Of a stretch of 64,000 bases of DNA, positions 4,946 through 57,232 are shown one piece after another; position 1 is the first letter of the stretch, and every line of letters begins with the position of its first letter. The stretch comes from Patescibacteria group bacterium. GTDB taxonomy: Bacteria > Patescibacteriota > Microgenomatia > UBA8517. The notes beneath the pieces were generated by a model, which ran no database searches, was not told where the DNA came from, and was given only the letters and a program-made list of their open reading frames with translations. The position numbers and the translations under genes are program-made. The stretch is from the NCBI GenBank assembly GCA_035291665.1, contig DATDRP010000006.1:74961-138960 (forward strand), in the 5' to 3' direction.

Positions 4946-5105
4946 TTGCCGTCCTCTTAAAATCCTAGTATCCTAATATCTTAATATCATTCTGAAATAT
5001 GGTTGGAAAATCCGATTACTACGACCCCGTACTGTTCTTACTTGCTCCCAAGTACTACGTGCTTGCGTCGCAAGAGCGAAAATACGGGGCAGGCATTTCT
5101 TGACT

Positions 5106-6772: not shown

Positions 6773-6908
6773 ATATTAATACTATTTATTAAGCAAGGCA
6801 GATACAATGTGTACTAATAAACCTCTCATAGGATTTCCTCAATTATATACGGATCTATACGGCTCTGAAAATTAAAAGTGATATAATCTCTGTACCTGTC
6901 CAATACCC

Positions 6909-8441: not shown

Positions 8442-8529
8442 AGTTGGCGCAAAGAGAAAAGCGAAGAGTGAAAAGCAATAAACTTTGTACTTTGAACTTT
8501 TTTCTATGTACTAACGCAAAGCGTTTTAT

Positions 8530-11368: not shown

Positions 11369-12439
11369 ATGGACAATTCTTTCAAATCCGTAATTGATTC
11401 AGCAAATTCAATATTGATCCTTCTGCCGACAAAACCTTACTTTGATCAGGTCGCAGCAGGGCTTTCTCTTTATTTATCGCTTCTGCATTCGGGAAAAAGT
11501 GTATCCGTATATTCCCCCGCTCCCGCAACAGTGGAATTTAACCGCCTGATCGGGGTTGATAAAATCACAAATGAGCTCGGAAACAAGAATCTCGTCATTT
11601 CATTTCCGAACTATAATTCCTCCGATATCGAAAGAGTCAGCTATGATGTCGAGGAAGGAATATCTGTTTTGACAATCATTCCAAAATCTGATGCCGTTGC
11701 ACCTAAAAAAGATGATGTTGAGTTTTCCTACACCGGGGTATCCTCCGACACGGTTATCTTGATCGGTGGGGCAAACGAGACGCATTTTCCGAAAATTGCG
11801 GATAAGGATTTGGCAAATGCTAAAATTTACCACATTGGCACCCGCCCCTTGAGTGCCGACCCTGCAAAAAATATAATTTCTTTTTCTCAAGCTACCCCGT
11901 CGGTTTCCGAGATTGTATTTATTTTGATTAATGAATCGGCTTTAACTCTTGAACCGGATATTGCGACCAATCTTTTGATGGGGATCGAAGATGCAACCGA
12001 TAATTATCAAAGTCCCAATGTCCTTCCCGAAACATTTGAAATTACGGCAGCTTTGATTCGAAGCGGTGGCAGAAGATATGCAGGAAAAGGCCTTGATACC
12101 GGAGGTTTCCCGGATGGTGCAATTCCCCGAACCAGCGTGACACCACCTCCAACCATGCCAAGCGGCTTTGATTTCAACGATAACCCCGTTGTTGATCAAA
12201 CAATGGATGAGACGGATTTCGGTCCAACTCCTCCCATATTTGATAAACCGGGTCCTTTGTCACAGGCAACTCCTTCTGCTCAGAAAAATATTCAAAAACA
12301 AGTTTCGGATAAAAACCCCGATGAAAAAGAGGAAGATTCTTTTATGGCTGAAGAAAAACCGGATGAAACCGAAGAAATAGAAAATCCCCCATCAGACTGG
12401 CTCCAGCCGAAAATCTACCGCGGAACTTCAATGAGTTGA
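11369..12439 (+). CDS. DHH/DHHA1-like (NrnA-like) protein with degenerate catalytic motifs and a P/E-rich tail
   Basis: The scaffold PYFDQVAAGLSLYLSL aligns with the DHH motif-I region HxxPDGDAIGSALAL, but only one Asp is retained. No DHH triad is recognisable. GGANETH stands where the DHHA1 GGGH motif would be. Confidence 0.35.
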   Translation: MDNSFKSVIDSANSILILLPTKPYFDQVAAGLSLYLSLLHSGKSVSVYSPAPATVEFNRLIGVDKITNELGNKNLVISFPNYNSSDIERVSYDVEEGISVLTIIPKSDAVAPKKDDVEFSYTGVSSDTVILIGGANETHFPKIADKDLANAKIYHIGTRPLSADPAKNIISFSQATPSVSEIVFILINESALTLEPDIATNLLMGIEDATDNYQSPNVLPETFEITAALIRSGGRRYAGKGLDTGGFPDGAIPRTSVTPPPTMPSGFDFNDNPVVDQTMDETDFGPTPPIFDKPGPLSQATPSAQKNIQKQVSDKNPDEKEEDSFMAEEKPDETEEIENPPSDWLQPKIYRGTSMS

Positions 12440-19601: not shown

Positions 19602-21743
19602 ATGTCCAAAAAACACCGCCGTTCCAAAAAAACAAAATCCAAAAAAGCATTTCAGCTAAAACTAAAACCGGCAACACTTTATTCAATTGCACAGGTATTT
19701 TTTTATGTTTTAGCAGGACTTACTGTTTTATCATTTTGGCGAAGGGGGTTGGTCCTTATTTATATCAATGATTGGATTGTTAATCTTTTCTCCTGGACAG
19801 CAATATTTTTACCTTTTATTTTTATAACATTCGGCCTTTTGATTTCAAAACTTCGATTACCAATTACCCAACCCAACGTGATGGTTGGCGCACTTCTATT
19901 TTTTGTTTCTTTAATGTCATTTTCGAAAGCAGGAATAATAGGCCAGAGTTTTTTTGACGGGCTTTCCGAGCTAATTACCAATCCCGGAGCATATATTGTT
20001 TTTTTTGGAATGATGATCGTTGGCGGGGTGATTATGTTTAATACATCTCTCGATCAGTTATTTTTATTTCTGGCTGATGTTTATAAAAAATATGTTATAC
20101 GCGGGAGCACCAGGGTAGGCAAGGCTGGGAGTTTCAAAAGTCCTTTAAAAAAGGAACTTAAGGTTGTCGGTGATTCCCCGCTTTCAAATAAACCGCTTTC
20201 AATAAACGAAGCAAAACCGACAAGCTCAAAAGATAATAAGGAATTTTTCGAGAAATCTCCGGATGAGCAGCAATTGGTCAGCAACATCCCGGGTGAGGAA
20301 GCAGTCTGGAAATATCCTCCGATTTCGATTTTTCAGGATACTTCTGGCGGAAAAGCGGACCGCGGGGATATTAAAGGCAACGCGGCCACCATCGAGCAGA
20401 CTCTTGAGTCGTTTGGGATTGCCGCACGGGTAGTTGAAGTAAATCTGGGACCGGCAGTTACGCAGTATGCATTAGAGGTTGCTCTGGGAACAAAACTATC
20501 AAAAATAACAGCACTGGAGCGCGATTTGGCGCTGGCGCTGGCTGCTCCTACCGGAACCATTAGGATAGAAGCACCAATCCCCGGAAGGTCGCTTGTCGGA
20601 ATAGAGCTCCCCAATAAAGCACCTGAGTTTGTTCCGATCAGAAAGATGCTTGAGTCCGATGTGATGAAGGAACAGAAAAGTAAACTTGCAGTATCTTTGG
20701 GATTGGATGTTTCAGGTAAACCGGTTGTCGCAACACTCGCAAAGATGCCGCACGCTCTGGTTGCAGGACAAACGGGTTCAGGTAAAAGTATTTGTTTGAA
20801 TACTTTTTTGGCAACACTTTTATTTCGGGCTTCGCCATCGGAACTTAAGCTTATTTTGGTTGATCCGAAAAGAGTCGAAATGGTTAACTATAACGGCATT
20901 CCGCATCTTTTGTCTCCGGTAATTATTGAACCGGACAAGGTTTTATCGGCGCTTAAATGGTTAATGGGTGAAATGGACCGGAGATATAAGCTTTTTTCTC
21001 AGGCGGGAGTCAGGAATATTGATTCGTATAACGAAATGTCCGGATTTCAGGCTCTTCCGTATATTGTCTTGGTTATCGATGAGCTTGCCGATATTATGCT
21101 TTTTTCACCGGTTGAAGTCGAAGATGCAATAACAAGAATTGCGCAGATGAGCCGTGCGACGGGAATCCATATGATTTTGGCTACTCAGCGTCCGAGTGTT
21201 GATATCATTACGGGTCTTATCAAGGCTAATATCCCGTGTAGAATTGCATTTGCGGTTTCCTCACAGGTGGATTCAAGGGTAGTTCTTGATACTCAAGGGG
21301 CGGAGAAGCTTCTCGGAAAAGGCGATATGTTATATCTTCCTCCTGAACAGGCAAAACCGATTCGTATTCAAGGGGCCTACACAACCGATAAGGATTTGAA
21401 TTCACTTATTTCCTATATCAAAAATCAGGGAGTTCAACCTCAATACACCGAAGAGGTAACATCGATGACAAAAAGAGGAAGCTCAGTCGTCCCGGGATAC
21501 GATGGAGATTTAGATGAGCTTTTCAAGGAAGCGGTAGAAGCTGTATGTCAATACGATAGGGCTTCAGCGTCACTTCTTCAAAGAAGGCTTTCCGTAGGTT
21601 ATGCAAGAGCTGCGCGAATTGTTGATCAACTGGAAGCAGCAGGAGTGATCGGACCCGCTGACGGATCAAAACCACGTGAGGTATTAATTCGAAGCGCGGA
21701 GGAGTTTTTCGCCCAATCCGCCTCAGAACAATCTCAAGAGTAG
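19602..21743 (+). CDS. ftsK: DNA translocase FtsK/SpoIIIE
   Basis: N-terminal TM segments, then a linker, then the motor domain (AGQTGSGKS Walker A, VLVIDELADIM Walker B) and a C-terminal gamma wHTH. Confidence 0.85.
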   Translation: MSKKHRRSKKTKSKKAFQLKLKPATLYSIAQVFFYVLAGLTVLSFWRRGLVLIYINDWIVNLFSWTAIFLPFIFITFGLLISKLRLPITQPNVMVGALLFFVSLMSFSKAGIIGQSFFDGLSELITNPGAYIVFFGMMIVGGVIMFNTSLDQLFLFLADVYKKYVIRGSTRVGKAGSFKSPLKKELKVVGDSPLSNKPLSINEAKPTSSKDNKEFFEKSPDEQQLVSNIPGEEAVWKYPPISIFQDTSGGKADRGDIKGNAATIEQTLESFGIAARVVEVNLGPAVTQYALEVALGTKLSKITALERDLALALAAPTGTIRIEAPIPGRSLVGIELPNKAPEFVPIRKMLESDVMKEQKSKLAVSLGLDVSGKPVVATLAKMPHALVAGQTGSGKSICLNTFLATLLFRASPSELKLILVDPKRVEMVNYNGIPHLLSPVIIEPDKVLSALKWLMGEMDRRYKLFSQAGVRNIDSYNEMSGFQALPYIVLVIDELADIMLFSPVEVEDAITRIAQMSRATGIHMILATQRPSVDIITGLIKANIPCRIAFAVSSQVDSRVVLDTQGAEKLLGKGDMLYLPPEQAKPIRIQGAYTTDKDLNSLISYIKNQGVQPQYTEEVTSMTKRGSSVVPGYDGDLDELFKEAVEAVCQYDRASASLLQRRLSVGYARAARIVDQLEAAGVIGPADGSKPREVLIRSAEEFFAQSASEQSQE

Positions 21744-21758
21744 ACTAACCTACCAAAT

Positions 21759-22382
21759 ATGAAGACAATCGGATTATTTTTGAAAGATGCCCGTTTGAAG
21801 AAAGGTTTAACCCTTAAAAAATTTGAAGAAAAAACAAAGATAAAAAAAAGCTTTCTTCAATATATTGAAACAGAAAAGTGGAATGACCTGCCCGAGTATG
21901 GCGTAGTCAAAGGTTTCGTTAAAAGCATGTCTGATATTTTGGATATCAAAAACGATGTTGCATTTGCACTTTTGAGGAGGGATTATTCATCGAATAAGAA
22001 GGTGGCTGTTAATCCCAAACCGGATCTTAAAATGAAGTTTTCGTGGAGTCCGAAAATAACCGTTTTGGTAGTTGTGGTTTTAGCGATTGTTTCAGTATTG
22101 TCGTATATTGTTTATCAATATATAAATTTCAACCAACCGCCGAAACTCGAATTAGTCCTACCGGTTGAGGACCAGGTTGTTGAAAATTTGGAAGTTGTCG
22201 TAAGCGGCATAACTGATCCTGATGCGGTAGTCATTGCCAACAATCAGCCGATACTTGTTAACAGTGATGGGAATTTTTCGGATACGGTGGAGGTGAAAAA
22301 AGGGGACGAAGAACTTAAGGTTTCCGCCACGTCCCGATCGGGAAAATTTACGGAAATAAGAAGAAGAATAAAAACAAAATAG
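21759..22382 (+). CDS. RodZ-like protein (XRE-type HTH, single TM segment, extracytoplasmic domain)
   Basis: N-terminal HTH (LKDARLKKGLTLKKFEEKTKIKKSFLQYIE), TM segment VLVVVVLAIVSVLSYIVY, and a C-terminal beta-rich domain. Confidence 0.5.
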   Translation: MKTIGLFLKDARLKKGLTLKKFEEKTKIKKSFLQYIETEKWNDLPEYGVVKGFVKSMSDILDIKNDVAFALLRRDYSSNKKVAVNPKPDLKMKFSWSPKITVLVVVVLAIVSVLSYIVYQYINFNQPPKLELVLPVEDQVVENLEVVVSGITDPDAVVIANNQPILVNSDGNFSDTVEVKKGDEELKVSATSRSGKFTEIRRRIKTK

Positions 22383-22461: not shown

Positions 22462-22698
22462 ATGGATGGGGTACAAGTTTTATTAACAGTAGTGGTAGTA
22501 GTTTTGACAGGACTTTTAGTCATTGTCGGAATTCAGGTGGTTTTGGTGATCATCGATCTTCGTAGGGGGTTGAAGAAGCTTAACAGCCTCCTTGACGATT
22601 CTCTTCTTGGGGGAGGATTGATCCGTCCTGATAAAATTACCGGGATTTTGGAAATGTTCCGGAAGAAGAAAAATGTTGAGAAGAGGGGGGAGTATTAG
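22462..22698 (+). CDS. Hypothetical small membrane protein (78 aa)
   Basis: Single strongly hydrophobic N-terminal helix (VLLTVVVVVLTGLLVIVGIQVVLVII). Confidence 0.3.
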   Translation: MDGVQVLLTVVVVVLTGLLVIVGIQVVLVIIDLRRGLKKLNSLLDDSLLGGGLIRPDKITGILEMFRKKKNVEKRGEY

Positions 22699-22750: not shown

Positions 22751-23551
22751 TTAATTATTTTTCAAGATATTTTTGAACAAACGATAAGCTCTATCTCCTT
22801 TCCAATCATATGGAAGTATCTCAAATGGTAACTGTGGATCGTTTCGAAGTATTGCGAGGTATGAAAAAGCGATTTGGTCTTTGGATTTTATTTCCCTACT
22901 TTTAATTAAATTGATAAATCGTTCGTAACTATTATTAAGTTCTTCAAGTCCGTAGACTTTCTCCAGAAGCTCTGACAAATTCAATCCCCCGACGGTTTCA
23001 CCTTTTTCTAATGAAGAAATGAGTATCAGCTCGTTATCAATATTATTTCCTTTAACAAACGACTCAATTAACCCGGTTGGGTTATAAGGAGTAATCCAAA
23101 CGCTTTTTTGTAAGATTCCGCATCCAAGTTTTTTAATGTAATCCCGGAGATTGTCTCTTTCAACATTTTTATCAATAGGAAAATCATATGTAATTAAATA
23201 TATTTTCCCGTCCCAAGTTCTTTTTTTATGATACCTTGGCAGAATTATATTAAGCCTATCTTTTCCTTCCTTTGTAATTGAAGGTAGTGTTAATCCTTCA
23301 TTAATCTTTTGTTTTACGGTCTTGATTAAACCTTTTCGTTTCAAATAATAAACACTTCTTTTGATAGTTTTGTAATTTATTTGCGATATTTTGTCCAAAG
23401 CTTTCTCGCTGGCTCCAAAACCTCTTCCGCTATAGCCGGAAGAGGCAAATTCGATACCATAGAAGATTGAAACTAAAGCCAGATCAACACTTGTTGAAAT
23501 AACACCTTCTGTAATACTTTTCACCTTTTCAGAGATATCTTTCTGACCCAT
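22751..23551 (-). CDS. PaaX-family-like transcriptional regulator
   Basis: N-terminal wHTH region. The hallmark PaaX segment RTWDGKIYLITYDFPIDKNVERDNLRDYIKKLGCGILQKSVWITP compares with E. coli PaaX WDGRWHLVVYSIPE...LGFGQLQQSVWVSP. Confidence 0.55.
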   Translation of the reverse strand: MGQKDISEKVKSITEGVISTSVDLALVSIFYGIEFASSGYSGRGFGASEKALDKISQINYKTIKRSVYYLKRKGLIKTVKQKINEGLTLPSITKEGKDRLNIILPRYHKKRTWDGKIYLITYDFPIDKNVERDNLRDYIKKLGCGILQKSVWITPYNPTGLIESFVKGNNIDNELILISSLEKGETVGGLNLSELLEKVYGLEELNNSYERFINLIKSREIKSKDQIAFSYLAILRNDPQLPFEILPYDWKGDRAYRLFKNILKNN

Positions 23552-23808: not shown

Positions 23809-25629
23809 ATGAAAGCATCAGATGTCAGGAAAAAATATATTGAGTTTTTCAAAAATCGCGGACATATAGAAATTGAACCGGCTCCACTGGTTTTGGAGAA
23901 TGACCCGACAACGCTTTTTACATCCGCCGGCATGCAGCCTCTTGTACCGTATCTCACCGGTGATCCGTATCCGGGTGGCGCCAGAAGACTTGTAAATTCC
24001 CAACCCTCAATCCGCTTGGGAGATATTGAAGAGGTTGGCGACAACCGCCATACAACCTTTTTTGAAATGCTTGGGAACTGGAGTTTGGGGGATTATTTTA
24101 AAAAAGAACAGCTGCCCTGGATTTTTGAATTTTTTACGGCTGAATTGGGACTTCCCAAGGAAAAGCTTTGGGTTTCGGTTTTTGAAGGAGATGATAAAGT
24201 TCCAAAAGACACCGAGTCTTTTGAAATTTGGGAAAAACTTGGGATTCCTCAGGAAAAAATTATTTATTATCCGGCCAAGAAAAATTGGTGGTCGATGACG
24301 GGAACACCATCTGATATGCAGGTGGGTCATATCGGGGGACCCGATTCAGAGGTCTTTTATGATTTCGGGGAAGATCGTAAATTTCATGAGAATTCACAAT
24401 TTAAAAACGACACCTGCCACCCCAACTGCGACTGCGGAAGGTTTTTGGAAATCGGAAACTCAGTCTTTATTCAGTATAAAAAAGTATCTGATACGGATCT
24501 TGAAGAGCTGCCTCAAAAAAATGTTGATTTTGGAGGCGGGCTTGAAAGAATTACTGCTGCGGTAAATAACACGCCGGACATATTTAATATTGATGTGTTT
24601 AGACCAGCAATAGATAGATTGGAAAAATATTTTGGGAAGGAGTATGGAAAGGAAAAAGAAATTGATGAGATGTACAGAGTAGTTGTTGAACACATCAGAG
24701 CTTCAATTTTTATATTAAATGCAGGTGTTACACCTAGTAACAAACAACAGGGGTATGTTTTAAGAAGATTACTTCGACGCGCTGCTGCAAAGGTATTTAT
24801 TAAAGACAAAACCTTCGATAGTAAAGAATTCAAGTCATTAGCTGAAATAATAATTAGCCAAAATTCAGGAATTATTAAAATTACAAACAAGAAAACCATA
24901 GAAGATCAAATTGTTTATGAGATCGGAAAATTCAGATCAACTATAGAAAGGGGAATGAATGAGGTTAAAAAAGTTGAGAAAATTACGGGACAAACAATGT
25001 TTGATTTGTTCCAATCCTATGGTTTTCCGCCAGAAATTACATTGGAAATTGCTGTTAAAGATAACATAGCAATTGAAGATAATGTGGGAGTAAATTTTGA
25101 AAAGCAAATGGAAGAGCATAAAGAAAAATCCAGAACTTCTTCTGCAGGGGTTTTTAAGGGTGGACTTGCGGATCACTCTGATGAAGTAATAAGATACCAT
25201 ACAGCAACGCATCTTCTTTTGGCATCTCTTCGGAAGGTTCTTGGTGACACTGTTGTCCAAAAAGGCCAAAACATAACGAAAGTTCGCAGCCGTTTTGATT
25301 TTCCGGGGAATGAAAAGTTAGAAGGTGCTCAACTGAAAAATGTGGAAGATATGATTAATGACGTGGTTACAAAAGACCTTCCGGTAAAATCCGTTGTTAT
25401 GTCCAAAGATGAAGCTTTGAAAACCGGTGCAATTCATGCCTTCAATGAAAAGTACGCAGATACGGTCAAGATATACTATGTTGGAGATTCTTTGGACCAA
25501 GCATTCAGTAAGGAATTCTGCGGCGGACCGCATGTTTCCCACACAGGTGAGATCGGGCATGTTAAGATTAGTAAACAGGAAAAGATCGGTGCGGGACTCG
25601 TGAGAGTGTATTTAGTATTAAATAACTAA
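23809..25629 (+). CDS. alaS: Alanine--tRNA ligase, truncated (catalytic, tRNA-recognition and editing domains; no C-Ala domain)
   Basis: Class II core (FTSAGMQPLVPYL), editing-domain motifs HTATHLL and CGGPHV. The ORF ends at 606 aa. Confidence 0.9.
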   Translation: MKASDVRKKYIEFFKNRGHIEIEPAPLVLENDPTTLFTSAGMQPLVPYLTGDPYPGGARRLVNSQPSIRLGDIEEVGDNRHTTFFEMLGNWSLGDYFKKEQLPWIFEFFTAELGLPKEKLWVSVFEGDDKVPKDTESFEIWEKLGIPQEKIIYYPAKKNWWSMTGTPSDMQVGHIGGPDSEVFYDFGEDRKFHENSQFKNDTCHPNCDCGRFLEIGNSVFIQYKKVSDTDLEELPQKNVDFGGGLERITAAVNNTPDIFNIDVFRPAIDRLEKYFGKEYGKEKEIDEMYRVVVEHIRASIFILNAGVTPSNKQQGYVLRRLLRRAAAKVFIKDKTFDSKEFKSLAEIIISQNSGIIKITNKKTIEDQIVYEIGKFRSTIERGMNEVKKVEKITGQTMFDLFQSYGFPPEITLEIAVKDNIAIEDNVGVNFEKQMEEHKEKSRTSSAGVFKGGLADHSDEVIRYHTATHLLLASLRKVLGDTVVQKGQNITKVRSRFDFPGNEKLEGAQLKNVEDMINDVVTKDLPVKSVVMSKDEALKTGAIHAFNEKYADTVKIYYVGDSLDQAFSKEFCGGPHVSHTGEIGHVKISKQEKIGAGLVRVYLVLNN

Positions 25630-25630
25630 T

Positions 25631-25711
25631 GATTCACGCAGATAATTAGCAGATTCACGCAGATAAATTCATCCGTTTTAATCCGCTTTCTATCCGTGTA
25701 AATCGTATCCA
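25631..25711 (+). promoter_or_regulatory. Direct-repeat region: 2 x GATTCACGCAGATAA (21-bp period) followed by 4 x ATCCG/ATCCA (~10-11-bp period)
   Basis: Perfect 15-mers at 25631-25645 and 25652-25666. ATCCG at 25671, 25681 and 25692. ATCCA at 25707. This is directly upstream of the ORF at 25713. Confidence 0.45.
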
Positions 25712-25712
25712 T

Positions 25713-27956
25713 ATGGATTTGAAAAGTATCTTGCCCAAAAAGAAGGAGGACAACGAGTACTTCTGGTCTGTTGTGATAGAACCCGATTGGGTGCAGGCAG
25801 GAGTCTGGAAAATAGAAGAAAAGAAAGTTGTCGTAGTTGCTAAGAGTAATCCTATTGCCTGGAAACTTGATGATGAACTCATTTCCGCAAGCGATGCCGC
25901 TCTATCTTCCGTCATTCAGGAACTGCCTGAAGATTTCACTGAACCTCAAAAAACAGTTTTCGGAGTCAGTTCTTCATGGGTCGATGACAGTCAAATAAAA
26001 GAAGAATATTTGGTGAAAATCAAGAAGATTTGTCAGGAATTATCTCTCACGCCGGTTGGTTTTGTTGTTGTATCTGAAGCAGTCGCTCATTATTTTAAAA
26101 ACGAAGAAGGCGGACCTTTAAATACACTTATCATAGGTGTTTCGTCGGGTAATCTTGAACTTGCCCTATATCAGAACGGAAAATTAATCGGAACCGCCCA
26201 GGTTGCCAGAAGCGTAAGCATATCGGACGATGTTGCTGAAGGGTTGTCGCGGTTCTCTTCAAAAGATGCACTTCCATCCAGATTTATTTTATTCAACGGG
26301 AGGGAGGGTGATCTTGAAGATGCAAAACAGGAGCTGATTAAAGCCAATTGGGAGGATTATGAGAAAATCAAGTTTTTGCACACTCCAAAAATAGAATTTG
26401 TATCTTCCGATGAGAAAGTCATGGCGGTTTCGCTGGCTGGTGGCGCTGAGATGTCTGAGGTGGAAGGAGTAGTAGAAATTGAAGCACCGGAAAAAGCTAA
26501 AGTTGTCCAAACAATAGAGGAGCCTGTTGCATCTCTTCCGCCTGATGAAGAGATTGCAAATATTACGGAAGCCGACGACGACCTTCATCCGGAAGATTTT
26601 GGTTTTGAAGTAAATGAAATGGCGCAAAATAAGCCGAAACCCGATTTTTCCCAGAAGACTGAAGCGGCAGGTGAGCAAATAGAAGAAAAAATTCATGCAC
26701 AGCCGGAACCTCCAAAGCAAATGCCCATTCCGGTTAAGAAAAAATTTAACTTTTCAGGGTTAACAAAAATCTTCTCAATTTTTAATTTGAGAAATCTTAA
26801 ATTCCCGGGTATAAAGACTGAAGGTACAAAACCTCTTTTAATTGGTTTTATTGCGATTATTTTATTGATTATCGGGGGGGGTCTTTTTTGGTGGTTTTTT
26901 CCTAAAGCGGAAGTGACAATATATATTTCACCGAAAAGTACTGAAGAAAAGTTTGATATCACGATAGATCCGGCAGTAAATAGCGCTGATTTTGAAAAGG
27001 GTATCATCCCGGGAAAAGTTGTTGAAAGGACTCTGACTCTAAATAAATCAAAAGGAGCAACGGGGAGTAAAACCGTTGGCGATAAAGCAACAGGTGAGAT
27101 TACTATTTACCGTGTCGGTACCGAGTTAACCCTGAGTGCTTCGACGTTAGTGAAAGGACCACAGGGATTGAATTTTACTTTGAACGATGAAGTTAGTATT
27201 GCCAGTGGTAGCGCCATAAACCAAGGGACCACGAAAGCCAATGTTGCCGCCGAAAAAATCGGAGCTGACTATAATCTGGCATCCGGACAAACTTTCAGTA
27301 TTGGCAATTATTCAACCTCCGACATGGAAGCGACGAATGAAAATGCATTTTCCGGAGGATCCAGCCGTGAGGTAAGTGCCGTATCTGAAGCCGACAAAAC
27401 CAGCCTCCTGAAAGATTTGCAAAACGAATTGGAAGAGAGCCTTAAAGAAGAAGTTGGAAAATCGATTTCAGATGATGAGATTGTTATAGACGATTCTTAT
27501 GAATTTACAATTGAAGAGGAAGATTACAATCATAAGGTGGGTGACGAGGCGGACACATTGACGCTCGATTTGACGATTACCGCTAAAGCTGTGGCTGTTA
27601 AAAACGAGCAAATAATTTCAGCTGCAAGAAAAGCATTGGAAGGAAGCGTTTCCGAAGGATTTACCTTAAAGGATGACCAGATAGAACCGAGTTTTTCTTT
27701 CAAAGAAGGTGAGGGGGGTGTTTACAATGTTGAGGTTTTTGCAAAAGCCGGACTTCTGCCCAAGATTGACACGGATCTTATTTTGGAAAATATTACCGGA
27801 AGGTTTCCGGATGTAGCCAGGGAATATTTAACAAAAAATGTTCCGGGTTTTGTAAGGGCTGAAATAGTTTTTAAGAACTTCAAATTCCCCGGTAAGCTTG
27901 GCTCTCTGCCAAGGGTCTCAAAAAATATTACAATCGAGGTCAGCGCGGAAAAGTAG
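25713..27956 (+). CDS. Membrane protein: N-terminal actin-fold (PilM/FtsA-like) cytoplasmic domain, one TM helix, large extracytoplasmic domain
   Basis: The N-terminal ~240 aa show PilM/FtsA-like strand patterns (VVIEPDWVQAGVWKIEEKKVVVVAKS ... LTPVGFVVVSEAVAHYF ... TLIIGVSSGNLELALYQNGKLIG). TM helix LLIGFIAIILLIIGGGLFWWFF. The ~350-aa acidic, beta-rich C-terminal domain is unassigned. Confidence 0.4.
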   Translation: MDLKSILPKKKEDNEYFWSVVIEPDWVQAGVWKIEEKKVVVVAKSNPIAWKLDDELISASDAALSSVIQELPEDFTEPQKTVFGVSSSWVDDSQIKEEYLVKIKKICQELSLTPVGFVVVSEAVAHYFKNEEGGPLNTLIIGVSSGNLELALYQNGKLIGTAQVARSVSISDDVAEGLSRFSSKDALPSRFILFNGREGDLEDAKQELIKANWEDYEKIKFLHTPKIEFVSSDEKVMAVSLAGGAEMSEVEGVVEIEAPEKAKVVQTIEEPVASLPPDEEIANITEADDDLHPEDFGFEVNEMAQNKPKPDFSQKTEAAGEQIEEKIHAQPEPPKQMPIPVKKKFNFSGLTKIFSIFNLRNLKFPGIKTEGTKPLLIGFIAIILLIIGGGLFWWFFPKAEVTIYISPKSTEEKFDITIDPAVNSADFEKGIIPGKVVERTLTLNKSKGATGSKTVGDKATGEITIYRVGTELTLSASTLVKGPQGLNFTLNDEVSIASGSAINQGTTKANVAAEKIGADYNLASGQTFSIGNYSTSDMEATNENAFSGGSSREVSAVSEADKTSLLKDLQNELEESLKEEVGKSISDDEIVIDDSYEFTIEEEDYNHKVGDEADTLTLDLTITAKAVAVKNEQIISAARKALEGSVSEGFTLKDDQIEPSFSFKEGEGGVYNVEVFAKAGLLPKIDTDLILENITGRFPDVAREYLTKNVPGFVRAEIVFKNFKFPGKLGSLPRVSKNITIEVSAEK

Positions 27957-27972
27957 TACCGTAAAATATTAT

Positions 27973-28617
27973 ATGAGCTACCGGTTTAAAAAAATCCTGT
28001 CAATGATTTTGGCGGCCATGGGAACGATAGTAATAATCCTTAGTATTCTTCCGATAGTCAGCTATGAATTTACTTATCGCCGGAAATTTCAAAGAATGTT
28101 AAGTCCAGTTCCTGAAGGGGCAACACTAACAGGAGTAGCAAATGATTATAAAAATCCGGAGGAGTGGTTTGAAGGCGATACTGTACAAAACAAAGATACT
28201 GGATTTGAATACCGGTTGTTTGTTCCCAAACTCCGGATTGAAGATGCAATTGTGACGGTTGGAGGTGAAGACCTCTCCAAAAACTTGATCCAATATCCGG
28301 GAACAGCTGATCCTGGTGCCGGCGGAAATACTGTAATTTTCGGCCATTCAGTTTTGCCTTACTTTTTTAACCCCAAAGACTATATGACGATTTTTTCCAC
28401 ACTTCCGAAACTGGATAAAGGAGACATCATAAGAATTGTTGCAAATAATATTTCATACACGTATGAAGTTAATAGATTTTTTGAAGTGTCCCCTGATAAT
28501 TTGGAGGTTCTGAATCAGGATGTTGACGGATCATATGTATCTTTGGTGACATGCGTTCCTCCGGGGCACCCCCTAAAACCAAGAAGGTTAGTTGTTCAAG
28601 CGAAGTTGTTGTTGTAG
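27973..28617 (+). CDS. Sortase (transpeptidase)
   Basis: N-terminal TM anchor, His in VIFGHS, catalytic Cys in SLVTCVPPG (TLxTC motif), and Arg in PRRLVVQA. The listed ORF starts at 27898. The ATG at 27973 gives MSYRFKK. Confidence 0.75.
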   Translation: MSYRFKKILSMILAAMGTIVIILSILPIVSYEFTYRRKFQRMLSPVPEGATLTGVANDYKNPEEWFEGDTVQNKDTGFEYRLFVPKLRIEDAIVTVGGEDLSKNLIQYPGTADPGAGGNTVIFGHSVLPYFFNPKDYMTIFSTLPKLDKGDIIRIVANNISYTYEVNRFFEVSPDNLEVLNQDVDGSYVSLVTCVPPGHPLKPRRLVVQAKLLL

Positions 28618-29191: not shown

Positions 29192-29392
29192 ATGTTAAAA
29201 AATGTCATTGCTCCGATACAAGCTTGGTTGATGTCGCAAGGCAGGTGTGTTGGCTGCGGAAAACCCCTATCACAGTGGAAAAAGGAGAAAAGAAAAGACG
29301 GAGCGGAGAAGGTAACCTGCGATTGCGGCCGCATCTTTATCCACGATCCAAAAACAAAAAAGTTCAGACGCGCTCTTCTTGAAGAAGTATAA
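29192..29392 (+). CDS. Hypothetical small zinc-ribbon protein (66 aa)
   Basis: CVGCGK ... CDCGRIF gives a C4 arrangement. A TTGACA ... TGGTATACT promoter-like sequence lies upstream. Confidence 0.35.
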   Translation: MLKNVIAPIQAWLMSQGRCVGCGKPLSQWKKEKRKDGAEKVTCDCGRIFIHDPKTKKFRRALLEEV

Positions 29393-29473
29393 TCGGAAAT
29401 TTCTAATTACCCTAATTAACCTAATTTCTAAGCAACTCCTATGTTTTTTGTTAAACTTATTTTTTAGGAAGAT

Positions 29474-33700: not shown

Positions 33701-34078
33701 GGGAAAGCTCAAATGGGAGGCCAGAGGCTCGGGGAAATGGAAGTTTGGGGACTTGAATCCCATCGTGCAGCCCATGTACTTCAGGAAATGCTAACAATCA
33801 AATCGGACGATATTGTGGGAAGGGCAAGAGCATTCGAAGCGATAGTAAAGGGTACGGAGATACCGGATGCGACAGTACCTGAGTCTTTTAAGGTATTGGT
33901 AAGAGAGCTTAATTCATTGGGACTCGCAATTGACGCAGTTGGAGGAACTTTCATTAATGAAGACGAAGAGGTTGAAGGTGAAGGACTTGAGTTGGCGAAA
34001 GCATCAGGCGCTGAGGTGGTTGCAACAGCAGAGCTTACTGATCCCAAAGGGCCGATGGAAATTGAAGAAGTACTTTAA
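30707..34078 (+). CDS. rpoB: DNA-directed RNA polymerase subunit beta
   Basis: 1123 aa with conserved RpoB blocks. Followed by rpoC. Confidence 0.97.
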   Translation: MAYKTNRLNFGKEEKVLPELDLISIQRDSWINFVNEGIAQELEDISPIDDFTGKNWRVVLGSPVMGVPKISPITCQDKGLTYSAPLKITATLINKRSGKEITQEVFLGDLPQMTARGTFIINGIERAVINQIVRSPGVYFSGELDVSTGRMLYKCEVRPLRGSWLEFEVSKNDVVAARIDRRRKVVGTAFIRAMGIQTDDELVDTFKDVDTDKNHRYIASTLAKDPSNSRDEAMIEIYRKMRPGEPALLENAEGLFTSLFLDPKRYDLGSVGRYKINKRLGLKVPNDKQNWIINRQDIIGAIKYLVALQNGKGKVDDIDHLSNRRLRRVGELVATNAFRIGLLRLERSVKEKMSLISPDDKPVPSNLINARPLIASLNEFFRSNQLSTILDDTNPLSELDNLRRVSVLGPGGINRDRASFSIRDVNSSQYGRIDPVRTPEGPNIGLVTYLALYAKINEYGFIETPYRKVEKIKKGRETKAKVMDEVVYLTADDEELYYITHSGVNIDGYGYITDSRVALRHNGTVTEGPVSLVDLIDLTPRQVVGASSCLIPFLAHDEGNRALMGSNMQCQAVPLVNPESPIIGTGMEHDIAKGMERMTLARNAGTVEYVDAEKVIVKLNKKVDVTELGEDVEIINGGKSEVYYLSKFRRTSHSTCYNQAAVVKNGDKVVKGSLIADGPSISGGELALGRNLVIGYMSYEGFGFEDAILVSDRLVKEDLLTSIHIEEYDCDVVDTKLGPEELTRDIPNVSEGDLANLAEDGIIVVGAEVGPNDILVGKIAPKGETELTSEERLLRAIFGEKAREVRDTSLRVPHGEKGIVIGVNILDREKGDELGPGVLKRVLVKVAQMRKITVGDKVAGRHGNKGVISRIMPSSDMPYMEDGTPIDIIISPLSVLARMNLGQLLEAHLGWAMSVEGEKAALPVFDKITEDMVVNELKKAGLPLSGKTRLHDGKTGEPFKEETVVGIAYILKLTHMVEDKTHARSTGPYSLVTQQPLGGKAQMGGQRLGEMEVWGLESHRAAHVLQEMLTIKSDDIVGRARAFEAIVKGTEIPDATVPESFKVLVRELNSLGLAIDAVGGTFINEDEEVEGEGLELAKASGAEVVATAELTDPKGPMEIEEVL

Positions 34079-34149
34079 GTCTAAGTAGAAGTCTAAGTCT
34101 AAGAAAATTACAGCAACAAAATCTTAAACTTAGTCATAGAAGAAATAAT

Positions 34150-39291: not shown

Positions 39292-39305
39292 GTAAAAATT
39301 ATTTC

Positions 39306-39337
39306 TTAATATCTTAGTATCATAATATCGTAATATC
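39306..39337 (+). repeat. 4 x octamer tandem repeat (TTAATATC, TTAGTATC, ATAATATC, GTAATATC) immediately upstream of fusA
   Basis: Exact 8-nt period. It ends 10 nt before the fusA ORF. A related 3-unit array is at 4965-4988. Confidence 0.55.
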
Positions 39338-39347
39338 TTTTTAAAGT

Positions 39348-48996: not shown

Positions 48997-49067
48997 AAAA
49001 ATTAACCTAATTGACCTAATCTGGGAATTAAGTTTTTAGAAATTAGGAATTAGAAATTAGAAATTGG
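48997..49067. repeat. CTAATT / AATTAG repeat array in the rpsC-rplP spacer
   Basis: AATTAACCTAATTGACCTAATCT (+ orientation) followed by TAGAAATTAGGAATTAGAAATTAGAAATTGG (the same motif inverted, ~7-nt period). It shares the 13-mer AATTAACCTAATT with 29414-29426. Confidence 0.5.
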
Positions 49068-50101: not shown

Positions 50102-50463
50102 TACAACTAAGAACAATGCTTGTTCCGGCTGATAATTCCGGAGCCAAAAGATTTATGGTCTTCGGAATTTCAGTAAAAATTGGGAAATATGCGACTATTG
50201 GCGATGTTGTTAACTGCGTCGTTAAAGGAGCAGACCCTAACGGGGCAGTTGCAAATAAGGAGAAAGTTAAAGTACTGATAGTCAGAACAAAAAAAGAAAT
50301 TAAGCGTAAGGATGGAACTTATTTGAGATTCGACGATAATGCTGGAGTTGCAATTGATAAGCAGGGTCTTCCAAGAGGAACCCGGATTCTTGGACCCATT
50401 GCCAGGGAAATAAAAGAGATTGGTTATACAAAAATTGCATCTTTAGCAAGAGAGGTAGTATAA
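50098..50463 (+). CDS. rplN: 50S ribosomal protein L14
   Basis: MIQLRTMLVPADNSGAKRFMV matches the L14 signature. Confidence 0.95.
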   Translation: MIQLRTMLVPADNSGAKRFMVFGISVKIGKYATIGDVVNCVVKGADPNGAVANKEKVKVLIVRTKKEIKRKDGTYLRFDDNAGVAIDKQGLPRGTRILGPIAREIKEIGYTKIASLAREVV

Positions 50464-50498
50464 AAATTAAAAATTTAAAATTAAAAATTTAAAATTAA
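50462..50498. repeat. AT-only tandem repeat (AAAATTAAAAATTT x ~2.5) in the rplN-rplX spacer
   Basis: TAAAAATTAAAAATTTAAAATTAAAAATTTAAAATTAATA. Confidence 0.5.
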
Positions 50499-50822: not shown

Positions 50823-51374
50823 ATGGCAAATTCACGTTTAAAAGAAAAATATCAAAAAGAAGTAGTTCCGGTATTGATGAAGGAGCTGGAGTTAAAAAAT
50901 AATTTTGAAGTTCCCAGGGTTTCAAAAGTTGTGGTAAATATGGGAGTGGGAGAAGCGATAAAAAATAAGGAAATTATGGAAAAAGCAAAAAAAGATTTGG
51001 CCGCAATTACAGGTCAGGCACCGAGCGTAAGAAGAGCTCGGGTATCTGTTGCAACTTTTTCTTTACGAAAAGGAATGGCCGTTGGGCTTAAGGTGACCCT
51101 TCGGGGTGAAAAAATGTACAGTTTTTTGGATAAGTTGTTTTCTATAGTTCTACCCCGGTTTAGGGATTTTCGGGGAGTTTCCCGTAAATGTTTTGATAAG
51201 GCGGGAAACTACACTTTGGGATTAGCAGAACAAACAGTGTTTACGGAAGTTGATATTCAAAAATCGGGTTCACGCGGAATGGAAATTACAATTGTTACAA
51301 AATCAGACGGCAGGAAGCAATCTGAAAGATTATTGGAGCTAATGGGTATGCCGTTTGAGAAGATAAAAGATTAA
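50823..51374 (+). CDS. rplE: 50S ribosomal protein L5
   Basis: L5 signature segments. Confidence 0.95.
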   Translation: MANSRLKEKYQKEVVPVLMKELELKNNFEVPRVSKVVVNMGVGEAIKNKEIMEKAKKDLAAITGQAPSVRRARVSVATFSLRKGMAVGLKVTLRGEKMYSFLDKLFSIVLPRFRDFRGVSRKCFDKAGNYTLGLAEQTVFTEVDIQKSGSRGMEITIVTKSDGRKQSERLLELMGMPFEKIKD

Positions 51375-51417
51375 CACGGATTTGAGACGGATTTTCACTG
51401 ATGATCAGTGTTAATCT
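51368..51417 (+). promoter_or_regulatory. Inverted repeat AGATTAACAC ... GTGTTAATCT (10 bp perfect) enclosing palindrome CACTGAT-G-ATCAGTG, between rplE and rpsN
   Basis: The left arm overlaps the rplE stop. The right arm ends 33 nt before the rpsN start. Confidence 0.45.
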
Positions 51418-51449
51418 GTAAGTTAAATCAGCGGAAATCTTATAAAGAT

Positions 51450-51635
51450 ATGTCAACAACAGCAAAAGAAGTAAGAGAATTAAAAAAACTGAAGTATAAA
51501 ACAAGGTATACAAACCGTTGCAGTTTGTGTGGAAGATCGCGCGGTTATATGAGAAAATTCGCTCTCTGCAGGTTGTGTTTCAGAAAATACGCACATAAGG
51601 GAGAAATTCCAGGTGTAAGAAAGGCAAGTTGGTAA
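51450..51635 (+). CDS. rpsN: 30S ribosomal protein S14, zinc-binding type Z (61 aa)
   Basis: [61 protein letters not shown] contains the C4 motif. The ATG at 51450 lies inside a longer listed ORF. Confidence 0.9.
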
Positions 51636-57154: not shown

Positions 57155-57220
57155 AGAGTCGAAGAGCAGGAGAGTGAAAGAGTAATAAATACTCACGCTC
57201 TTATACTCTTCTACTCTTTT
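57155..57220 (+). promoter_or_regulatory. rpsM leader: purine-rich motif GGAGAGTGAAAGAGTAATAAAT followed by pyrimidine octamer repeats ACGCTCTT-ATACTCTT-CTACTCTT (imperfect long hairpin)
   Basis: The arms are complementary over ~20 nt. The element ends 12 nt before the rpsM ATG. Related elements are at 1070-1149 and 8449-8510. Confidence 0.45.
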
Positions 57221-57232
57221 ACTTTAATTTTT

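Follow-up and report, generated by a model that had tools for sequence, protein, structure and literature searches.

The locus described here lies in a 64,000-nucleotide stretch of contig DATDRP010000006.1 from a Patescibacteria group bacterium of the Microgenomatia (the window) and centres on the gene for a 747-residue bitopic membrane protein, P747 (25713..27956, + strand), recognized from its open reading frame (ORF), its full-length homologues and an AlphaFold2 model. Upstream is alaS (23809..25629, + strand), encoding an alanyl-tRNA synthetase of 606 residues with the Pfam domains tRNA-synt_2c and tRNA_SAD. The alaS stop codon ends at 25629 and the P747 ATG is at 25713, with an imperfectly palindromic intergenic element of 83 bp (25630..25712) between them. 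A gene for a membrane-anchored sortase of 214 residues (27973..28617, + strand; PF04203, E 3.6e-22) begins 16 bp past the P747 stop codon. Our favoured, if tentative, reading is that P747 and the sortase form a two-gene envelope module within an alaS-...-ruvX-mltG housekeeping cluster, P747 being a conserved trans-membrane scaffold and the pair having no regulated promoter of its own. Gap, synteny and orthologue counts were obtained from 80 related loci in species-representative genomes (78 other genomes), one of which (L002) is an identical copy of the P747 locus; the assemblies SRR3990171 and SRR3989307 also contain this locus. Pfam scans, invariant columns and the AlphaFold2 input were derived from an alignment of 53 family members.

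The AlphaFold2 model of P747 (53 sequences) had a mean predicted local distance difference test score (pLDDT) of 82.7, with values of >90 for the N-domain and of about 90 for the ectodomain, and contained four segments: the N-domain (residues 12 to 256), a disordered linker (259 to 369), a transmembrane (TM) helix (372 to 395) and the C-domain (399 to 747). The protein is bitopic and probably a scaffold, with an actin-fold domain inside, a linker of about 110 residues, one TM helix and an acidic domain outside. Hydropathy analysis placed the single TM helix at residues 374 to 396 (26832..26900, + strand), with a Kyte-Doolittle maximum of 2.68 at residue 375. As the helix is preceded by a juxtamembrane stretch rich in K and R, the positive-inside rule indicates an N-in, C-out topology. 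The domain beyond the helix spans about 350 residues and has an isoelectric point of 4.6, so the TM helix and large acidic ectodomain reported in a preliminary description of this DNA were both recovered. The cytoplasmic linker (residues 257 to 368; 26481..26816, + strand) is acidic, proline rich and disordered, with a pLDDT of <50 over residues 259 to 369, and carries a conserved PEDxGF motif, G297 and F298 being invariant. A further conserved segment is the N-terminal peptide M-D-L-K-x-[FI]-L-P-x-K (residues 1 to 10; 25713..25742, + strand), which is predicted to be disordered (mean pLDDT 48), with K4 shared by 52/53 aligned members, L7 by 50/53 and P8 by 42/53. This peptide and the PEDxGF motif may be docking sites.

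P747 belongs to a large family. There were 671 full-length homologues with 43 to 52% identity, mostly from Woesebacteria, and a search of 1.84 billion cluster representatives with the family profile gave 9,734 matches at an E value of ≤1e-3 and 2,189 at ≤1e-30; nearly all of the best 150 matches were of 650 to 820 residues. Distant members, with 26 to 31% identity, were detected in Shapirobacteria, Pacebacteria and other Microgenomates. The one distant member subjected to profile-profile alignment (P0439) matched the P747 family from residue 91 to the C terminus, with an hhalign probability of 100 and an E value of 7.8e-45, and shares its architecture. The P747-sortase module is conserved across the Microgenomates, in Woesebacteria, Shapirobacteria, Pacebacteria and Blackburnbacteria.

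The cytoplasmic N-domain (residues 12 to 256; 25746..26480, + strand) is a minimal actin fold of the ASKHA (acetate and sugar kinase/Hsc70/actin) type. Foldseek matched it to PPX/GppA and PilM with E values of about 1e-8, in agreement with the actin fold proposed for it previously. Both of the RNase-H-like lobes of the actin/ASKHA core are present, and these account for a domain of about 245 residues; nothing equivalent to the 1C (SHS2) or 2B subdomains was found in the model. The position of the phosphate-1 Asp is occupied by Glu23 in 53/53 members, E23 and G142 being invariant, and in the second hairpin, (V/I)(L/I)G142(V)(Y/S)K, G142 is not preceded by an Asp. Judged from these aligned motifs, the domain is without the canonical phosphate-binding aspartates and is probably not an ATPase. 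No ASKHA family in Pfam (FtsA, SHS2_FTSA or PilM_2) matched any of the 53 members at an E value of ≤1, and the family profile retrieved no FtsA, PilM or other ASKHA protein from the PDB sequences at an E value of ≤10. The subfamily to which it comes closest, though by a narrow margin, is FtsA/PilM. Because of the bare core, the missing Asp and the lack of profile matches, the N-domain is regarded as FtsA/PilM-like in fold and not as a member of that family. P747 differs from FtsA and PilM, moreover, in being anchored by a true TM helix, in continuing into an ectodomain and in having no dcw (division and cell wall) or pil gene context.

The ectodomain proved to be related to a phage structural protein. 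Residues 456 to 553 (27078..27371, + strand) form a domain like that of the baseplate wedge proteins J, gp47 and gp6, as detected with three profiles. Pfam Baseplate_J (PF04865) gave an E value of 4.5e-5 and 23.3 bits, above the cut-off of 21.1, and matched 52/53 members, the best at 6.9e-9; PHROG_6, annotated as baseplate wedge subunit, matched these residues with an E value of 3.5e-9; and the P747 family profile matched diffocin TRI-2 among the PDB sequences with an E value of 0.008. Comparison of the ectodomain with solved wedge proteins by Foldseek aligned 333 to 366 columns at E values of about 1e-6, a match at the level of the fold. On these profile matches, the first half of the ectodomain is homologous to phage baseplate wedge protein J/gp47/gp6, and Baseplate_J membership is valid for this one domain of P747 only. 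In the C-terminal half (residues 556 to 747; 27378..27953, + strand), which is without a clear structural relative, alpha/beta units come after a long helix; when the last 192 residues were modelled separately, a pLDDT of 81.8 was obtained. Near the C terminus of P747 an exposed loop, [LF]PG[RK]L[GK][TS]LP[RH]V, is conserved at residues 725 to 735.

These results bear on the proposal, made in the preliminary description, that P747 combines PilM-like and PilN/O-like parts in one protein, as the alignment module of a type IV pilus or pseudopilus. The layout, an actin-like domain followed by a TM helix and an outer domain, is indeed that of PilM plus PilN or of GspL, and the N-terminal peptide may be akin to the N-terminal INLLP motif of PilN. 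The ectodomain, however, is baseplate-J-like and showed no domain of the PilN/PilO/GspM type (a coiled coil plus a ferredoxin-like fold of two alpha-beta-beta units); its C-terminal half matched none of PilN, PilO and GspM, and the PilN/O-like part of the proposal was hence not supported. The 1C subdomain is missing and the PilM_2 and PilN Pfam models miss 53/53 members. A search for type IV pilus genes detected none, either in the window or across the 80 related loci, and a complete Microgenomates genome is reported to carry a separate PilM within its type IV pilus locus (PMC7143001). A pilus alignment module is therefore considered very unlikely. GspL and the PilM-PilN pair may nevertheless be the nearest analogy for the way in which P747 works, as their topology is that of P747, with an actin-like domain in the cytoplasm that is probably non-catalytic, a single TM helix and a domain beyond the membrane. 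They differ in that the P747 neighbours include no secretion ATPase, pilin or pseudopilin, the conserved partner being a sortase, and in that the P747 ectodomain is not of the PilN/PilO/GspL/GspM ferredoxin-like fold.

The baseplate homology raised the alternative that P747 is a remnant of a prophage or tailocin, and hence a misannotated baseplate gene, as the Pfam, PHROG and PGAP labels (all baseplate J/gp47 or baseplate wedge subunit) would have it. Against this, the gene keeps one place on the chromosome, surrounded by housekeeping genes, throughout the 80 related loci, and no contractile-tail genes (sheath, tube, gpI/gp48 or gpW/gp25) were detected beside it in those loci. Unlike the wedge proteins J, Mu gp47, T4 gp6 and diffocin TRI-2, P747 carries its wedge domain on the outside of the cell, tethered to the membrane and fused to an actin fold, and its gene is chromosomal and syntenic with housekeeping genes, with no sheath, tube or gpI partners. 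The family is also essentially absent from viral sequences: the ectodomain had no match by tblastn in 50,697 phage genomes, and a search for P747 relatives in 2.9 million viral contigs yielded a single truncated one (L083, 6001-6345; IMGVR_UViG_3300009285_004785), corresponding to residues 117 to 231 and located at the contig end. The DNA upstream of this hit contains a DNA-methylase-like ORF, differs in composition and encodes neither residues 1 to 116 nor alaS; as it looks unrelated in both composition and coding, the hit is probably a mis-join, a chimeric assembly or a junction. No defence-system match was obtained with PADLOC. A prophage origin of the locus is hardly credible on this evidence, and P747 is a gene of the cell rather than of a phage. 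In Microgenomates genomes, the 'baseplate J/gp47' label is likely to lead to prophages being called falsely.

The downstream gene was confirmed as the membrane-anchored sortase previously described. Gene callers placed its start at the ATG at 27973 and not at the TTG at 27898; the N terminus contains one TM helix, and H125, C194 (within the motif SLVTC) and R205 are conserved in ≥95% of the 80 orthologues. By these residues the sortase is catalytically intact. The best match among PDB sequences was 4d70 (E 4.6e-11), which we take to be a class D sortase. None of the class-specific NCBIfam sortase hidden Markov models (HMMs) reached its cut-off, the best being class C with 50.4 bits versus a cut-off of 160 and with D, E and F also far below. 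The protein thus resembles the Gram-positive sortases (classes A to F) in its fold, its N-terminal membrane anchor and its His/Cys/Arg catalytic residues and differs from them in reaching no class cut-off, in having no adjoining LPXTG substrate and in having P747 as an invariant neighbour. The sortase family, fam000526, is reported to be near ubiquitous in Microgenomates (Méheust et al. 2019, PMC6744442).

The sortase gene was found downstream of P747 in 80/80 complete loci, with a median gap of 13 bp and a 4-bp overlap in 13 loci. At one locus (L054, 8204-12526) a 4.4-kb insertion lies between the two genes, the sole break in adjacency among the 80. The insertion encodes a soluble-looking protein of 1,440 residues, which was considered as a sortase substrate and rejected, as it is without a sorting signal. 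In the distant members (26 to 30% identity to the query, P0240), the sortase was the next gene in 5/5 testable loci, either 2 to 6 bp on or with a 4- to 8-bp overlap; the sixth locus (L206) ends at a contig end, so that the sortase position is not covered. The flanks of these distant loci vary. In the six lookups, including the cut locus, the gene upstream was SBP_bac_1 in three and alaS in one and was cut by the contig end in two; the gene past the sortase was variable, with a class A penicillin-binding protein (PBP) in two loci, and a VanW/PG_binding_4 gene was nearby in three lookups. The persistence of the P747-sortase pairing despite these changed flanks is the strongest evidence of functional coupling. 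Close to the distant member in L208 there is also a gene for a PaaX_M protein.

Such strict adjacency, with frequent translational coupling, would suit a more specific relationship, in which P747 is itself processed or linked to the wall by the adjoining sortase or is the membrane base of a sortase-assembled pilus. Also in keeping with this explanation, the best NCBIfam and PDB matches of the sortase were class C and other sortase-family entries, and the conserved loop near the P747 C terminus is exposed. P747, however, shows no sorting signal of the kind in which an LPXTG-like motif precedes a hydrophobic segment and a basic tail, and its C terminus folds in as a beta strand; the class HMM scores are far under their cut-offs; and neither pilin-like genes nor LPXTG genes were detected in the window or across 82 loci (about 1.1 Mb), the substrate scan having looked for the same three elements in that order. 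Class C sortases are normally located in pilin clusters. We consequently give little probability to a dedicated enzyme-substrate or pilus-base pair. The earlier suggestion of a small cell-surface or pilus-assembly module is upheld as regards a tight and conserved gene pair and is not supported as regards pilus assembly, there being neither type IV pilus genes nor a pilin nearby, and the search for sortase substrates that it had recommended found none in the window and the 82 loci.

The neighbourhood of P747 was examined in the 80 related loci, in which the recurrent neighbours were alaS, the sortase, ruvX, mltG and rpoB. alaS was 5′ of the P747 homologue in every related locus with enough upstream sequence. 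The wall-related neighbours in the window are mltG, a RodZ-like HTH_25 protein and ftsK. The ftsK gene (19602-21743), about 4 kb upstream, is the only fts gene near P747. It is followed by the gene for the RodZ-like protein (21759-22382), which has an HTH_25 domain, a hydrophobic stretch resembling a TM segment and a beta domain, and by one for a largely hydrophobic protein of 78 residues with no Pfam match (22462-22698). The RodZ-like and 78-residue genes are kept upstream of alaS in most related loci, adjoining ftsK, and the whole block looks like a cell-envelope growth cluster. Between the 78-residue gene and alaS, the window contains a gene on the − strand (22751-23551) for a PaaX-like protein with a Cas2-like middle domain, which was found in a single related genome (L020) and is for that reason regarded as a variable insertion. 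Together with the class A PBP and VanW/PG_binding_4 genes of the distant loci, the mltG, RodZ-like and ftsK neighbours point to a link with the cell wall.

A link of this kind could mean that P747 is a tether of the divisome or elongasome and does in Microgenomates what FtsA or ZipA does elsewhere. The actin-fold domain would then bind FtsZ, FtsA or MreB, the cytoskeleton would be held at the membrane through the long flexible linker and the TM helix, and the ectodomain would be the relay to wall enzymes and to a septal sortase. The order of globular domain, disordered linker of about 110 residues and membrane anchor mirrors the FtsA/ZipA logic, and the ftsK, RodZ-like and mltG neighbours, as well as the class A PBP of distant members, would fit. 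The 2B subdomain, with which FtsA binds FtsZ, is absent from P747, however, as is 1C, and neither ftsZ nor a dcw cluster was found near P747. We regard this explanation as unlikely, though less so than the other alternatives to our favoured reading.

The mechanism that we propose for the two-gene envelope module is as follows. The cytoplasmic domain of P747 would bind a partner or self-associate, as FtsA, PilM and GspL do. The ectodomain, whose fold is one that elsewhere assembles into oligomeric wedges and rings, may serve as a platform outside the cell. Where wall is being synthesized, such a platform may place the co-translated sortase or else be its target, the partner of P747 presumably being the housekeeping sortase of the lineage, at the cell wall. 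Anchoring of surface proteins would then be coupled to a cytoplasmic cue. Several points weigh against this reading. The part of the ectodomain that is demonstrably J-like amounts to just 100 to 155 residues or so, the remainder being without a relative; loss of the ATPase was read off alignment motifs, not from structural superposition; no LPXTG-type sorting signal was detected in the DNA scanned; and it is from fold analogy and gene adjacency that P747 is suggested to oligomerize, bind a partner or contact the sortase. A bolder version, which we consider decidedly unlikely, is that the Microgenomates have domesticated a phage baseplate-wedge protein, with a ring of J domains outside the cell, the TM helix and linker, a ring or filament of stripped actin folds inside, and a sortase that fixes the platform or its displayed cargo to peptidoglycan. 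If true, this would be the base of a surface organelle, or a machine that organizes the wall, of a type not seen before and possibly used for host contact.

No description of this architecture was found in the literature on sortases in the candidate phyla radiation (CPR) and Microgenomates or in that on baseplate J in Patescibacteria or with transmembrane or actin-like proteins. A preprint on the Pam pilus was considered as a description of the module and was unrelated. The P747-sortase pair looks like an undescribed cell-envelope module. The Microgenomates are a large uncultivated branch of the CPR whose envelope biology is almost unknown, and the pairing holds across several groups of them even where the other neighbours all change, making the module a concrete candidate for organizing sortase-dependent surface display or wall growth. 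P747 is, furthermore, an apparent case of a phage structural fold being re-used by the cell. Both its architecture and its coupling to a sortase are unexpected and widespread; as to function, we infer the role outlined above.

The preliminary description had also proposed that the repeats upstream of P747 place the module under dedicated regulation. The spacer contains four copies of a 13-mer, GATTNANNCNGAT, at 25631-43 (+), 25652-64 (+), 25671-83 (−) and 25692-704 (−), with a 21-bp phasing in each arm. The two perfect 15-mers reported previously (GATTCACGCAGATAA, 25631-25645 and 25652-25666) were present with their 21-bp spacing, and no further match to this sequence was detected in the window at ≤3 mismatches. 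The pentamers were present also, ATCCG at 25671, 25681 and 25692 and ATCCA at 25707, with spacings of 10, 11 and 15 bp and hence without the uniform spacing of about 10.5 bp that had been claimed. A cluster of four ATCC[GA] pentamers in 45 bp was unique in the window, the expectation being about 0.17 per 83 bp, and the fourth pentamer is part of a perfect palindrome, ATCCATATGGAT (25707..25718), which was read from the sequence, extends across the P747 start codon and forms a small 3′ hairpin when the spacer is folded with its flanks. The units of the right half (ATCCGTTTTAATC and ATCCGTGTAAATC, 21 bp apart) are a diverged inverted copy of the left half, and the whole spacer is therefore an imperfect hairpin of 24 pairs. 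Folding of the spacer RNA gave a minimum free energy of −18.0 kcal/mol, with a z score of −4.2 to −4.4 relative to dinucleotide shuffles and of −2.98 when the flanks were included. There was no consistent signal of strand specificity at the RNA level: in the window the minus strand folded better (−30.4 versus −18.0 kcal/mol), while the plus strand was the better one in 15/22 relatives.

The four phased 13-mers could be a true operator, at which a regulator would control P747 and its sortase. Their arrangement departs strongly from randomness, and its symmetry of two plus two sites phased by 21 bp, or two helical turns, would suit a DNA-binding protein, which limits the case for a generic hairpin. 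Conservation was examined in the relatives. The gap between alaS and P747 has a median of 16 bp across the 80 related loci, with many gaps of 0 to 6 bp or overlaps of 4 bp, and in each of the 78 other genomes this spacer is either missing or of another kind; where relatives have long spacers, their sequences are unrelated to that in the window. A scan for sigma-70 promoters and intrinsic terminators made no call within the spacer and none after alaS. The pattern GATTNANNCNGAT had 7 matches in the window versus 0.78 expected, a number reached by 0/100 shuffles, and two of the extra matches, at 51369 (+) and 51404 (−), are inverted relative to each other and lie in the spacer that separates rplE (50823-51374) from rpsN (51450-51635). 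This second palindromic four-site element (51369..51439) aligned end to end with the P747 spacer in an identical four-site layout and folded with a z score of −4.03. In an nhmmer search with the P747 spacer alone it was the best non-self match, with an E value of 0.062, a modest level of support. Recurrence of the repeats at many unrelated loci, which the preliminary description had named as evidence against its own proposal, was thus observed weakly, as one further copy within a ribosomal-protein operon.

Repeat-built spacers were, in addition, common in the window. Tandem arrays with a period of ≥6 were present in 12/40 spacers versus 2.6 ± 1.35 in dinucleotide shuffles, and 14/32 spacers folded with a z score of <−2 compared with 0/32 coding controls. 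These counts indicate that repeat-built hairpins are a habit of this genome. Our conclusion is that the spacer probably belongs to a palindromic element dispersed among intergenic sites and is not a dedicated operator; the latter we judge improbable, and the claim of dedicated regulation was not sustained. Most likely P747 is transcribed jointly with alaS, and alaS is probably co-transcribed with the whole P747-sortase module. The spacer could at most be a generic intercistronic hairpin with a possible role in, for example, mRNA processing, mRNA stability or attenuation. It resembles the repetitive extragenic palindromic (REP) sequences, bacterial interspersed mosaic elements (BIMEs) and miniature inverted-repeat transposable elements (MITEs) in being short, intergenic, imperfectly palindromic and present at more than one unrelated locus and differs from them in being made of four phased 13-mers rather than one stem, with two copies seen in 64 kb. 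An iteron reading of the repeats is not accompanied by a rep gene, ATCCGT showed no general enrichment in spacers, and no Rfam family was detected for the spacer, either in the window at gathering thresholds or in the related loci and element-bearing metagenome loci at an E value of ≤1.

Spacers of this construction are a separate feature of genome architecture in the lineage. The tandem arrays in the window consist of three to five copies of 6- to 10-bp units just before start codons, the unit differing from spacer to spacer, and include those at 1115-1150, 4958-4988, 6846-6866, 8482-8512, 29403-29426, 34076-34103, 39304-39339, 49000-49065, 50461-50498 and 57198-57223. The long alaS-P747 spacers of relatives are still mostly hairpins built from short tandem units, with 14/22 having a z score of <−2 and the lowest being −7.95. 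Inverted arrays of such units were seen just upstream of position 6001 in L019, L039, L061, L072, L007, L077 and L004; examples are TTCCAGA...TTGGAGA, TTCGAAA and ATTTTCA/TGAAAAT, so that the architecture is common and the sequences are unrelated between species.

Metagenome contigs were scanned for the four-site element. At least 120 seed matches were obtained, of which most may be due to chance, as the pattern has just 17 specified bases; about two dozen loci matched the element model with an E value of <1e-3, and about a dozen of these did so over most of its length. Arrays of CACGGAT/ATCCGTG, direct and then inverted and with a period of about 10 to 11 bp, occur in contigs with a GC content of 0.34 to 0.63, as at L132 2621-3110, L156 5621-6109 and L124 2055-2190 and in L127, L159, L175 and L186, and may represent a widespread element or type of binding site. 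In L132 and L156 the arrays are located on both sides of a small ORF, the C-terminal residues of which may resemble those of the GxxExxY protein family.

The 64-kb window as a whole contains no tRNA or tmRNA and no Rfam match at gathering thresholds, and 65/72 of its crudely called genes are on the + strand. For an ORF of 356 residues (11369-12439), situated between infB and pnp, Pfam gave no match at an E value of ≤0.001. Between ruvX and mltG there is a gene (29192-29392) for a zinc-ribbon-like protein of 66 residues with a CxxC...CxC pattern, the sole Pfam match of which is a subthreshold one to A24_N_bact. This small protein is exceptionally well conserved and was found in 74/80 related loci, with 61 to 82% identity in most and down to 53% in others.

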